Assembly: GCA_951406725.2 (NCBI GenBank)
Contig: OX597824.1
Coordinates: 76,632,001-76,696,000, forward strand
Source of the DNA: Octopus vulgaris
Lineage: Eukaryota
Reading direction: 5' to 3'
Length of the DNA stretch: 64,000 nucleotides
In this document: positions 1,724 to 50,335 of the stretch, piece by piece
How the letters are laid out: each line of letters starts with the position of its first letter
Numbering within the stretch: the stretch's first letter is position 1
The notes under the pieces: model-generated
Seen by the model: only the letters and a program-made list of their open reading frames with translations
The model's database searches: none
What the model was told of the DNA's origin: nothing
Position numbers and translations under genes: made by a program

Positions 1724-1795
1724 TCTCAGACTGCAGTTTCTTTCTTTTCAGCAATAAAGATAATTTATTTGCTCAGGGAGACGTCTTCAGTGAGA
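1724..1795 (-). ncRNA. Type I hammerhead ribozyme, Penelope-type (base of stem II mismatched)
   Basis: Minus strand reads UCUCA-CUGAAGA-[stem II with AGCAAAUAAA/UUUAUUGCU]-GAAA-CUGCAG-UC-UGAGA; stem I UCUCA/UGAGA and GUC triplet. Confidence 0.7.
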
Positions 1796-1940
1796 CCCTG
1801 TTTTTCTGGGATCCTAACTCACTAGAAGCATGTGCTTCTAATGATTTACTCTCCCTAGCTAATCATATCACTGCGCAGACATCTACACATAAAATACAAA
1901 ATACAAAGTTATATCTTGATATTGCTAGTGATAACAATAC

Positions 1941-2330
1941 TCAAAATCTATAACAGACTGGAATTGTAGGCCCGTCTCTTGCAATTTGGATCAATTGTGT
2001 CTTGTCCTCCCTCTTGTATAGAAGTGTGGCTACAATCCAGCCTACCTCTACTTCTGGGGGAACATTTAAAACTTTTATCCGGGACGTCCTACGTCCCAGA
2101 TATAAAGGTAAAAATAAAATATTTCCACTTTGCAAAGCTCGAGCCGAGTACTCCCTTGCACGCTCCGTTGACTCGAACCTTGCTTCAATTGTGGCGAATT
2201 TACCGTCTCTGGTTAGATGTCTTTCATAGTCGCACCAAGACACTTTTCGATGATGCTTTCCTCGAGGTGTTCAAATCTTTTTTTCTCTCTACATTGTATA
2301 CTTTATTGACAATAGTCTTTTCTTTAATTT
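1941..2330 (-). pseudogene. Decayed L1/Tx1-like LINE ORF1 fragment
   Basis: Non-repetitive reading frame containing LPLYLGRRTSRIKVLNVPPEV, similar to the RRM-like V.NVPP motif of Tx1-type ORF1; frameshifted upstream. Confidence 0.45.
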
Positions 2331-2949
2331 AATTTTTTATTTCGATTGGTGGTGTTATCCTAGTCACCGTCTTTGTCGGTGATCAATCCGAAATAGGTTT
2401 GTATTTCTTCCATTTTAATTTTAATGAGTTCGCACCTGCCGACTTTCTTCTATCGAAGGCATTCTAACAAAAATGCTTCCGTGTAGACGGTGAAAATATT
2501 GTCAATTTCCCCAAAGAGGGACACAATTCAATTTCTAAACAATAGCGAAAGCTCCTTCTCCCAAAGGTTACAGTTTACAATTATTTAACAAATGCAACAC
2601 AACAACGTTTCCCTTACGAGGAACCAACAAACCTGATAACAATAGTTAAACAGTAATAATAATAACAACAAATCTTATGGTGAATCAAAAAGCAGTACGC
2701 AGTTGATTTAATTTAATATATTCCCATTCATGTGAAACCACTTATTCAAGTTCAAGTCATTGATGCAATTTTATACCAATTGCTATTTTTACTTTTGTTA
2801 TGTTACGAATATATTATACTTTAGTTTGATTTTAATTATTACTTACTACATATAATTCAATTGTTATTATTATTTTTATTGTTAAAGTGGAAGTATCTGA
2901 CATAAAATAGAAAAATGTTTTTGTTTCACTTTTAACACGTAATACTGAA

Positions 2950-3285
2950 ATAGTGGAGAAGATATAATATTGCTATGGGCTCGCTCTAGACAAGAAGCTG
3001 AACATTTTTTGCCCATGAAACTACATGGACCCTAAGTAAGACATGTGTAAAATTTGAATGAAATTGGTTGTGTAGTTCTCACGTTTTAGGGAATCGTAGT
3101 GGAGAAGATATGATGTTGCTGTGGGCTCGCGCTAGGCAAAAAGTTAAAGATGACACTCCCCGGACCCTAAGTAAGGCATGTGTAAAATATGAATGAGATT
3201 GGATGTGTAGTTCTCAAGTTTTAGGGAAACACACAGACAGACAGACACACACACACACATTCTCATTTTTATATATATATAAAGA
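2950..3285 (-). mobile_element. Non-autonomous Helitron-like 5' portion with an internal tandem duplication of about 145 bp
   Basis: Ends TTTTATATATATATAAAGA|T (minus strand A|TC), the same terminus as the Helitrons at 14850 and 61633; TAGTGGAGAAGATAT...GTTTTAGGGAA occurs twice. Confidence 0.55.
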
Positions 3286-4120
3286 TACATGCACGCACAC
3301 ACATATACATACAGAAAGAGATATTTACGTAATATATTTATATACATATGTATGTACATATATACTTATACGTATATAAATATATACATATATGTATATA
3401 AATATATACATATATAAATATAAATATATACATATATAAATATATACATATATACATAAACTTATATACATATAAGTATGTATATACGTTTATATTTACG
3501 TGTATATATACCCATGCACACATATATATCTATATATATTTATATATCTATTTATTTATATATGAATGTCTCTGGGTGTGTGTGTGTGTGTCTATATATC
3601 ATGTGATATTTGTGTATTTCATATACGATGGATGCTCTCCCTTTTTCGTTTTTATCTATAAAAACTATTTCGTTTGTTTCTTTGAATCTTGGCGAGAGTA
3701 ATATGAGAAAGTTGATTGAGTGCTAATGTACGTTACATCACATTGTCGCTGAAACTATTTCAACCATCAGTTTTCTAATTTGTACCGCAATGACTGCTGC
3801 ACTCATTTAAACATCTCTGGTTTCAATACAAATACGTCCTATACGTTAACACAAAATGATTCCTTCGTAAGTAACTTATAATTTTACTTCCTTTTTCCTT
3901 GTCTGTTATCTGTCTGTCTATCTATCTATCTATCTATCTATCTATCTATCTATCTATCTATCTATATATATATATATCTATCTACATACTATATATATAT
4001 ATATATATATATATATATATACATATATACATATATACATATATATATATATATATATATATATATATATATATATATATACATATATATATATATATAT
4101 ATATATATATATATATATAT

Positions 4121-4266
4121 GGAGAATTTACAAAAGAAGCAAAAGACGAAGGCAGATGGTGTACAAAACAAATAGATGTATTAGTATAACGCTCAGGGAT
4201 AGAAAAAGTCTTTTACGTTTCGAGCCTACGCTCTTCTACAGAAAGGGACACAGAAAAAACAAGGAT
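4121..4266 (-). mobile_element. Short Penelope-like terminal-repeat relic inserted in (TA)n
   Basis: Homologous in the opposite orientation to 25555-25721; carries GAAGAGCGTAGGCTCGAAACGT (degenerate minimal hammerhead); (TA)n on both sides. Confidence 0.55.
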
Positions 4267-47886: not shown

Positions 47887-48497
47887 TATATCATGTCAGA
47901 GAATTTGTTTCTGCGTTGGAGTTTATGTTGATTAGTCAAATATTTTATCTCATAAAGGAACGGAGTGGGGTAGAGTAGATTAAAGTCTATGAGGTAGATG
48001 AGTTAGATGATGTTGTTAGATGATGTTGTGAATTTGGGAATAGATTTTTTGAGGAAGCAAGAATTGTAGTTTGTATGGTAGGTTATACCAGGTAGTTTCA
48101 TATTTTGTTCTTTTATCAACAAATGTGTGTTGGTGTGCATTTGTTCTGATCTTCGAGACTTCTTAGTTGAAGATTGTGTCTGCAGTTGTACCTGTTTGTA
48201 CTGAAGAGGGCGCCATTGTCTGACAAAACCATTTTCGAGATTGTGTTTTGTTTTTAGTTTTTGATAATGAAAAGATATGTGATGCATGCATGCATTAGGT
48301 TGTTCATTAAGTTGTTGTCTCCTGCGACTATGGAATTATTAAGGCCTATTGATATGTCCTTGATGTTGATAAAGCCAACATCCCTATAAAGGCCTCCTTA
48401 AAAAATGGGGGGTGGGGGAACAGGAATTTAGTGTTTACAGTGTATAGAATGGTCTATCTGGATCAGATAACCCTTTAGAGTCGCATACCTGGGATGT

Positions 48498-48875
48498 TAC
48501 TCTTTACTCTTTACTCTTTTACTTGTTTCAGTCATTTGACTGCGGCCATGCTGGAGCACCACCTTTTAGTACTTATTCTATCGGTCTTTTTTTGCCGAAC
48601 CGCTAAGTGACGGGGACGTAAACACACCAGCATCGGTTGTCAAGCAATGCTAGGGGGATAAACACACACACAAATACACACACATACACATATATATATA
48701 TATACATATATACGACGGGCTTCTTTCAGTTTCCGTCTACCAAATCCACTCACAAGGCATTGGTCGGCCCGGGGCTATAGCAGAAGACACTTGCTCAAGA
48801 TGCCACGCAGTGGGACTGAACCCGCAACTGTGTGGTTGGTTAGCAAGCTACTTACCACACAGCCACTCCTGCGCC
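48498..48875 (-). mobile_element. SINE family A
   Basis: Match with a short internal deletion. Confidence 0.92.
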
Positions 48876-48891
48876 TATTCTTGAGAATTTA

Positions 48892-49051
48892 CCTTAATCC
48901 ACAAATTTCTTTCGTATAATAGTAGAAATTTTCTGGCCTGTAGAACAATAATCTTAGCTTTCTTTGGAAATTTCCTTAATCCACAGATTTCTTTCGTATA
49001 ATAGTAGAAATTTTCTGGCCTGTAGAATAATAATCTTATCTTTCTTGGAAA
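48892..49051. repeat. Tandem duplication of about 81 bp
   Basis: CCTTAATCCACA.ATTTCTTTCGTATAATAGTAG...TTGGAAA occurs twice. Confidence 0.9.
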
Positions 49052-50074
49052 CAGGCATCAACTGGTTTGCGTGCTAGAATGCTTCTCTAAGGCGTTTCGT
49101 TGAGATAGGCAGGTAGTAATTATTGATGTTAAAATGGAAGAACTGACGTCCTTTTTGTTTTATGCTAACTTGAATTATTCTCTAAATTCAATTAATCCAA
49201 ATTAGCCACCTTATAAAATTTAAAGCATTCTCTACACATTCATACGCCCAGCACACACACACACACACACACACACACACACACACACACACACACACAC
49301 ACACACACACATACACACACACACACACACACTCATCTATCCATACATATATATTCACTCTCTGCAACCTTCATCTATTATTCATCGCATATCAACTCTA
49401 AGATTTAAACACTACTTTTATATTCTATAGCAAAGGAACATTAATTGATATCACTAGCAAAGAAAAATATATTTAATTTCAATCATTCCCTAAATTTGAT
49501 TATATCAACATACCCACCCCTTCAACACTAAAATACATTCTACACACTCAAACGCATACGCTCGCACAAATCACACATACACGTTTATTCCTTCGGTTTT
49601 CTTCTATTGCCTACTGCCATATCAAATTTATCATCTAAAATACACCTGCTAAACAATCGTTTCCTGTGTAGGCATAAGGCTGGCAATTTTGATGGAAAGC
49701 TATAAATTGATTCTATTTGCCTCACTATTTGCCTAGAACCTTTTTAAAATAAAGTATTTTCGGAACGGTGAATCCCGAAGCACACAATGCATTTAAATTA
49801 TAGCATGTAAATATTTGGATAAATAAATTCTTTGGCTAAAAAGTCAAAACCTTCGACTTTTTTCTATACACAGACTTCATTTTTCACCCAGTATTTACAT
49901 GTTATTATTTAAAGCATTGTTTCCTTCAAAATTCGCTGTTTCTAAAAGGATTTATTTTACATTCCCGAAGTTTTTATGATATCAATAAATGACTTTATTT
50001 TGTTGACTTTGAGAGATTGAAAGTTGACTTTTGTGAGTCGGAGCGTGAGAGATGCTTTTCGACGTTCTAACAAT

Positions 50075-50335
50075 TACAGGCACATATTGGATTGGTCTCG
50101 TGTTCATATGTTTAATCTTGGCGTACCTGCTGAAGGAGACTTCGCTAAGAAAATTATTTTATTTCCTAAATAAAGTCAGAAACCATGGTCCAAGAAATAG
50201 ATGGTAAATGTTTTTAATTTTCTTTCCTTTCGAGAATTTATCCCTAATTAGTGGTTTGGACTTTAACTGTTCTTTCTAGAATAAAGGATTCATATGAAGG
50301 AAACCTCTTAATGTGTTTAAATGTACACTGTATTT
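50075..50335 (+). mobile_element. Second copy of the 8927-9528 hammerhead element; hammerhead at 50123-50195
   Basis: GUACCUG-CUGAAGG-AGACUU..AAGUC-A-GAAA-CCAUGG-UC-CAAGA; flanks homologous to the reverse complement of 8927-9180. Confidence 0.72.

Follow-up and report, generated by a model that had tools for sequence, protein, structure and literature searches.

What leaves some ten hammerhead ribozyme motifs in one 64-kb stretch of the Octopus vulgaris genome, nearly all of them close to (TA)n microsatellites and with self-complementary segments in helix III? The stretch in question (contig OX597824.1, positions 76,632,001 to 76,696,000; G000:C11:76632001-76696000), here called the window and numbered from its first base, belongs to a 2.8-Gb genome, is rich in microsatellites and in repeats resembling short interspersed nuclear elements, and contains no convincing long open reading frame (ORF). 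An initial annotation had suggested that the motifs mark dispersed non-autonomous mini-elements related to Penelope-like elements (PLEs) and retrozymes, and that their different palindromes act as family-specific dimerisation barcodes. The reading favoured here, to which we assign a probability of about 0.85, is that the sites are pseudo-long terminal repeat (pLTR) hammerheads of several PLEs, together with short non-coding derivatives that are likely mobilised by PLEs, inserted at (TA)n; the palindromes likely pair ribozyme copies and are likely not barcodes. Directly observed are protein-coding bodies upstream of two families, 3' ends that are fixed and lead into (TA)n, 5' ends that vary, partial tandems and inverted 5' arms, a symmetric helix III and a compensatory change in helix I.

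The motifs themselves are genuine. GAAA, a helix III segment and UH are found at all ten coordinates, six of which refer to the minus strand or had been given at the edge of the palindrome. The window holds nine half motifs (GAAA, a palindrome of at least 6 nt that starts with C, and TH), compared with a mean of 0.38 and a maximum of 2 in 60 local dinucleotide shuffles, and three complete palindromic hammerheads, compared with 0.05; none of the 60 shuffles reaches either count, and the motif frequency is well above that of shuffled sequence. Half motifs at 32778, 31221 and 60201 were not counted, having no 5' half and no family support in the loci examined. The type I core (CUGANGA, GAAA and UH with helices I and II) is present in copies of families A, C, E and G, and core variants occur in D, F, G and H (the family letters are given below). 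Helix I of family B covaries, with TCTCA/TGAGA, TCTTA/TAAGA and a G-U intermediate. A variant CCGAUGA core (U4C) is in the majority in family G and also occurs in a subfamily of B (L303-L305), there with a compensatory change in helix I. A scan of the window against Rfam returned no hammerhead family among the 150 of 272 matches listed, almost all of them microsatellite-driven miRNA matches. The sites are true type I hammerhead motifs on PLE ends and on short non-coding offshoots.

Each site seeds a dispersed family, as had been proposed. The ten sites resolve into eight families, A (9064, 50179), B (1724), C (31396), D (4771), E (10780), F (6688), G (14833, 38313) and H (46081), with 466-2304 first-look candidates per site, of which the best 40 were scored in each search. 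A ninth family, J (40862), had not been listed. The window holds at least nine families and the 1.1 Mb of DNA retrieved about 18, some of them very young (97-100% identity). The siting at microsatellites is borne out as well, with nine of the ten sites within 300 bp of a (TA)5+ tract compared with 47% of background positions (p=0.007). The AAUAAA signal, noted earlier after several sites, follows three of them (4771, 6688 and 31396).

Two families lead back to protein-coding PLEs and substantiate the suspected connection with this class. The family C copy (31330..31580, minus strand) is the 5'-truncated 3' end (pLTR) of a protein-coding, Hydra-like PLE; it carries an intact hammerhead (31388-31473) with CATATG and a GUA triplet and ends in (TA)n. 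At locus L182 a GIY-YIG ORF ends 676 nt upstream of the family C hammerhead, and it lies likewise upstream in L077, L082 and L085. The L182 ORF is nearly complete but frameshifted (436 + 480 amino acids), contains RWF, DKT, YRDD, YIG, CxxC and CxH motifs and has 19 full-length homologues, the best at 43% identity (E-value 7.7e-106). Translations of L182 and L084 show RWK-like and DKT motifs, CxxC and CxH, no CCHH and a (TA)n target. They resemble the Hydra clade of PLEs with a C-terminal endonuclease (EN+), whose described features are RW(F), DKT, the lack of CCHH, CxxC and CxH around the conserved E and N, insertion at (TA)n and the presence of a hammerhead (PMC8557442). Unlike that clade, family C has Asn-rich low-complexity inserts that lengthen the ORF.

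The family H copy (46014..46210, plus strand) is the 5'-truncated 3' end of a Neptune-like PLE, with a hammerhead-like motif at 46060-46096 that has CCGG in helix III. A decayed reverse transcriptase, CX4CxxC and GIY-YIG lie at most 1.4 kb upstream in three of 11 other loci. The decayed translations (L274, L276, L278) show a CX2-5CxxC linker and a cysteine pair inside GIY-YIG, in keeping with the Neptune clade, which combines reverse transcriptase, this linker, GIY-YIG with internal cysteines and TA-rich 3' junctions (PMC8557442). All three H ORFs are decayed and the family differs from the clade in its U3-A8 core and its helix II of 1 bp; like family C, it is placed by motifs alone. The label of non-autonomous mini-elements fits A, B and E, which are short non-coding tandem units, and fails as a general description, since 31396 and 46081 are truncated ends of protein-coding PLEs.

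Some findings speak against a PLE origin of all the families. Pfam gave no significant family for the C ORF, and the CxCX5C linker that precedes GIY-YIG in the Hydra clade is absent from C loci L182 and L077 and present in the homologues P0001 and P0003. Within about 1.5 kb of D, F and G there is no firm link to an ORF; for A, B and E, whose units contain no ORF, no autonomous partner came to light. The weak base of helix II in B, the single base pair in H and the variant cores leave room for some families being inactive. Because the linker is missing, family C appears Hydra-like and is not assigned as a member of the clade.

Other PLE remnants were met nearby. One family C copy is adjoined by a second Neptune-like PLE, in which a thumb-endonuclease frame of 336 amino acids is open (L079:1698-2700 and L026). 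Further Hydra-like ORF remnants lie at L187 (10 kb to the left of the window), L193, L173, L088 and L287, and these five additional loci suggest that the PLE group is abundant in the genome. Window positions 1890-2520, upstream of the family B copy, were considered as a PLE ORF and proved to be an unrelated repeat. A decayed Hydra-like endonuclease piece (L035:1781-2200) was rejected as a partner of B, no hammerhead following it; this fragment is the immediate neighbour of a six-unit array of family B and has the opposite orientation.

Families A, B and E consist of non-coding units of 470-495, 396 and about 430 bp, respectively. The family B copy (1550..1880, minus strand) is a 5'-truncated piece of the tandem unit, running from unit positions 245-396 into 1-179, with its 3' end in (TA)n. 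Its type I hammerhead (1724..1795, minus strand) has helix I TCTCA/TGAGA, CTGAAGA, a long helix II, GAAA, CTGCAG and a GUC triplet. The site at 9064 had been taken for a mutated CCAUGG; it is instead a copy of a CCATTGG subfamily of A with one substitution (CCATTGA), a partial tandem at 8907..9528 (minus strand) that starts about 10 nt after the predicted cut and has its hammerhead at 9059-9133. Site 50179 represents the CCATGG subfamily, in a decayed copy (50079..50335, plus strand) whose hammerhead (50125-50195) shows an A9G change and a mismatch in helix I. The family E copy (10527..11046, minus strand) has an inverted 5' arm (about 10960-11046) and a hammerhead at 10775-10846 with CCTGCGCAGG. 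Around the ribozyme A and B are related (64% over 108 nt, E-value 8e-6).

Comparison with published systems places the families, on the features tested, with PLE pLTR hammerheads and animal non-LTR retrozymes, a class that is already in the literature. Like the former, they have a type I topology with a long helix II, a short helix I and a palindrome at positions 15.2-16.2 plus loop 3, and they form many consensus families per genome, mostly as single truncated copies and opposite-strand pairs (PMC4209133; PMC6765202). A U3-A8 core variant described there (PMC4209133) is the core of F and H; helix III of 4-11 nt, helix II of up to about 80 nt and the CCGAUGA core set the octopus families apart from those reported in that paper. 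A, B and E also resemble animal non-LTR retrozymes, with 400-500-bp AT-rich non-coding units, one type I hammerhead in each and forms from monomers to multimers (PMC7229834; bioRxiv 10.64898/2026.07.22.740005); in all three a non-coding tandem unit of 150-500 bp carries a hammerhead in every unit, E forming partial tandems only. They differ from the retrozymes of the preprint in that their 3' ends are fixed as in PLEs, their targets are (TA)n and the B junctions pile up after the cut, and they are known here from DNA. Retrozymes have been proposed to derive from PLE pLTRs, and that work sampled 35 species (31 vertebrates, 3 insects and 1 coral) and no mollusc (bioRxiv 10.64898/2026.07.22.740005).

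The anatomy of the insertions is that of PLEs. The 3' end of family B, visible in 47 of 48 position-ordered insertions, always lies at about unit position 173-181 and leads into a TA run; B has this one 3' end, and A, C, D, E and F each use two alternative ones. Families A, C, E, F and G often carry an inverted 5' arm, and ends or inverted arms of PLE type occur in D, F and G. PLEs are known for partial tandems, for 5'-truncated arms in inverted orientation and for a pair of alternative 3' ends (PMC8557442; PMC11167929), a pattern that matches A, C, E, F and G; the alternative 3' ends of A, C, D, E and F match the 'tail' arising from two internal start sites of reverse transcription (PMC11167929). 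Many family C insertions (L196-L225; window 31330-31580) are two-armed, each arm reaching from a reverse-transcription start site to a meeting point mid-way; the points where the arms join are concentrated 145-165 nt upstream of the cut, close to a CCATGG palindrome, and other junctions fold back at helix III or at TTCGAA palindromes.

In the literature on PLEs, the endonuclease nicks AT-rich DNA and reverse transcription starts internally. In the octopus, a PLE protein would nick (TA)n and, downstream of the ribozyme, start reverse transcription from one or two fixed internal positions; copying would then proceed back through one or more units, A, B and E being mobilised in trans by PLE proteins. 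Neighbouring units of a tandem transcript may join by helix III pairing and undergo cleavage at low efficiency, as suggested by the uncut sites that persist inside most insertions. Another route for A, B and E would be dispersal as free circular RNA through rolling-circle reverse transcription, independent of PLE-type target priming. Head-to-tail B arrays of up to 27 units and the lack of inverted arms in all 48 B insertions would suit it, as would the accumulation of animal retrozymes as circles (PMC7229834), but the fixed internal 3' starts and the (TA)n targeting fit PLE priming, A and E carry PLE-type inverted arms, and a closed circle gives no cause for copies to end at the cut. The unit-to-unit joint is seen in contigs of runs guessed to be RNA, and likewise in genomic tandems and a run of unknown kind; neither ends nor circles can be read from contigs. 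An independent circular route appears improbable, although circles and PLE priming are compatible and do not exclude each other.

The variable 5' ends bear on whether the ribozyme acts during transposition. Among 50 distinct insertions of family B (from the first 100 of 184 position-ordered exact matches, numbered so that position 1 directly follows the predicted cut), 14 have their start at positions 1-27, three of them at position 1, followed by four at 28-99 and four at 370-396. After stratification for TA microhomology 1.8-2.9 starts are expected at 1-27 (Poisson p about 1e-6 or smaller), in a 27-nt window that was picked after the first data had been seen; the best non-overlapping 27-nt window among copies of at least 81 nt holds four starts. 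A distinct group of starts, at 100-126, comes from 13 very short copies. A genome-wide search for TA-joined junctions near the cut, overlapping with the 50-insertion sample, gave 27 loci among 100 of 114 rows, with 23 after and four before the cut (p=3e-4). Four of the 27, in three sequence variants, lie exactly at position 1. The 27 are what remains of 28 junction loci after removal of L303, where an uncut unit merely had a point mutation; of the 28, 13 were rechecked and 13 others match known B loci.

In the proposed cycle some family B templates would begin at the cut and give rise to the pile-up. The distribution probably marks hammerhead cleavage in vivo, and cut templates offer the best explanation of these DNA junctions. 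The more specific proposal, that B insertions are copied from ribozyme-cut germ-line RNAs (cut monomers and partly cut multimers), with junctions at or after the scissile bond and lengths near 179 and 575 nt, stands at even odds. A little behind it comes the possibility that reverse transcriptase stalling at the folded ribozyme, a nearby transcription start or (TA)n microhomology produced the pile-up. Unit positions 6-9, immediately 3' of helix I and with TA-like bases, hold many of the junctions, four of the 27 lie inside the ribozyme upstream of the cut, and the 15 nt upstream of the cut contain no TA, all of which such causes would accommodate; for a lizard PLE, moreover, uncut RNA is the main substrate in vitro and no RNA-seq ends fall at the cut (PMC11167929). 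Against these causes, however, the enrichment persists after stratification by TA microhomology, with only four starts at 28-99, four of the 27 junctions lie on the very first base after the cut in three sequence variants, and helix I has only 5-6 bp. Further families lend cleaved templates little help: A has seven starts versus two among 26 insertions (p=0.09), C has about 29 junctions after, 31 before and 12 within one base of the cut (counted by eye in 100 of 109 rows), and E shows no pile-up in its six rows. The junction signal is family-specific, strong only in B and weak or absent in A, C and E. If cut templates do explain it, the pile-up would be a genome-scale footprint of a Penelope-type hammerhead acting in the transposition cycle, and one that differs between families.

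Palindromic helix III segments are a general property of the set. A scan of 1.11 Mb (redundant and enriched for the queried families), in which only the outer helix III pair was required, gave 252 matches in 15 clusters, and the majority segment is self-complementary in all 15, with G-U pairs and one central unpaired base allowed. The window and nine tiles (154 kb) gave four matches, compared with 0.05 in shuffles. Within families the palindrome is kept in 33/33 rows of C, 22/23 of G, 17/20 of E, 14/16 of F, 7/10 of H and 11/22 of D, as counted in pattern-match rows that include some noise in D. As the innermost helix III pairs are impossible in a monomer hairpin, such symmetry is expected of a dimer, and it has been published for PLE hammerheads (PMC4209133; PMC6765202). 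Between the related families D and J the palindrome shows a compensatory change, CGATCG in one and CAATTG in the other. For E (a 4-bp stem and tetraloop) and A (a 3-bp stem and triloop), on the other hand, the predicted monomer folds are about as good as or better than the rest. On balance the palindromic helix III likely pairs two copies of the same ribozyme. Uncut C copies in which helix III is contracted to CATG (about five rows) or extended to CATATATG represent palindrome-preserving indels.

Whether the palindromes also keep families apart, as the initial annotation supposed, is a separate matter. Predicted helix III homoduplexes range from -6.4 to -23.5 kcal/mol and cross-family duplexes reach -6.6 or weaker, mostly weaker than -3, and the related pairs A/B and D/J carry different palindromes. 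Poor cross-pairing is nevertheless what palindromes that differ from one another would show in any case; self-complementarity alone yields it, and it does not count as evidence of barcode selection. Nor does every family have a palindrome of its own: CCGG is common to F and H, whose flanks are marginally alike (E-value 0.002), CATATG, CAATTG and CGATCG each occur in two separate clusters, and family A has two forms. Barcode selection predicts sharing below chance, whereas the eight hexamer clusters include three identical pairs compared with 1.75 expected, in a small sample and under a model that leaves shared ancestry aside; five hexamers, from a hand-picked list, would all be distinct by chance half the time. 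Family A falls broadly into two subfamilies, with 156 exact CCATGG and 150 exact CCATTGG copies, which still cross-pair at -7.4 kcal/mol, and a 1-nt indel switches its palindrome even within single insertions (L316, L317). Tandem transcripts, in addition, offer a partner in cis. Selected barcodes that block cross-family dimers and trans-cleavage are very unlikely, the idea being unsupported rather than disproved; the palindrome sequence likely drifts between families.

The main value of the locus lies in a rich and apparently uncatalogued set of hammerhead families. The literature searched, at the level of listings and without Lunse et al. and supplements, yielded no report of hammerheads in cephalopods, of barcoding by palindromes or of 5' junctions of PLEs at the cut, and the same search gave no account of the window families, the supplements of PMC4209133 and PMC8557442, which may list relatives, lying outside it. 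In a repeat study of one octopus species, 31 Penelope-like families are reported as recently active, and the words 'ribozyme' and 'hammerhead' are absent from its main text (PMC13282606). The set extends the model in which retrozymes derive from PLEs to a non-vertebrate genome. The in vivo role of PLE hammerheads has been called unclear (PMC8557442) and they are dispensable in vitro (PMC11167929); family B, as a young and simple system with a measurable junction signature, suits a direct test of that role.

The remaining copies come from families D, F, G and J. Family D is represented by an old copy (75-85% identity) with a PLE-like 3' end between (TA)n tracts (4612..4832, plus strand); its hammerhead (4681-4788) has a decayed 5' half at 4681-4695, CGATCG and AAUAAA after helix I. 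The consensus core of the family is CUGAAGU, and the helix II region that comes after it spans about 80 nt. Sites 6688 and 46081 had been grouped by their shared CCGG; they belong to two different families, both with the U3-A8 core variant. The family F copy (6215..6742, plus strand) contains an internal 224-bp duplication and a hammerhead at 6659-6703 with TTGAYAA, CCGG and a GUA triplet. Site 14833 is a whole family G hammerhead (14827..15269, minus strand; CCGATGA, CAGCTG), the 5' half of which (15251-15269) was split off by an inserted repeat of about 400 bp. This repeat (14848-15250) sits in the TA-rich loop II, and a second copy lies at 61215-61635. A family G stub (38234..38392, plus strand) consists of an inverted arm and the 3' half of the hammerhead (GAAA at 38309, CAGCTG). 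The halves missing in the window for D and G are supplied by other copies of these families. Family J, a distant relative of D, has a decayed hammerhead with GAAA at 40862 and CAATTG (40780..41100, minus strand) and a second, interrupted copy at 41174-41779 (plus strand).

Beyond the hammerhead families, a tblastn comparison with phage gave no match. The window also contains a 359-bp imperfect inverted repeat (5685-6043, 83.6% self-match) resembling a miniature inverted-repeat transposable element, and mariner-like transposase fragments at 16207-16717 and 25752-26907, whose translations we take to be of the DD34D type.

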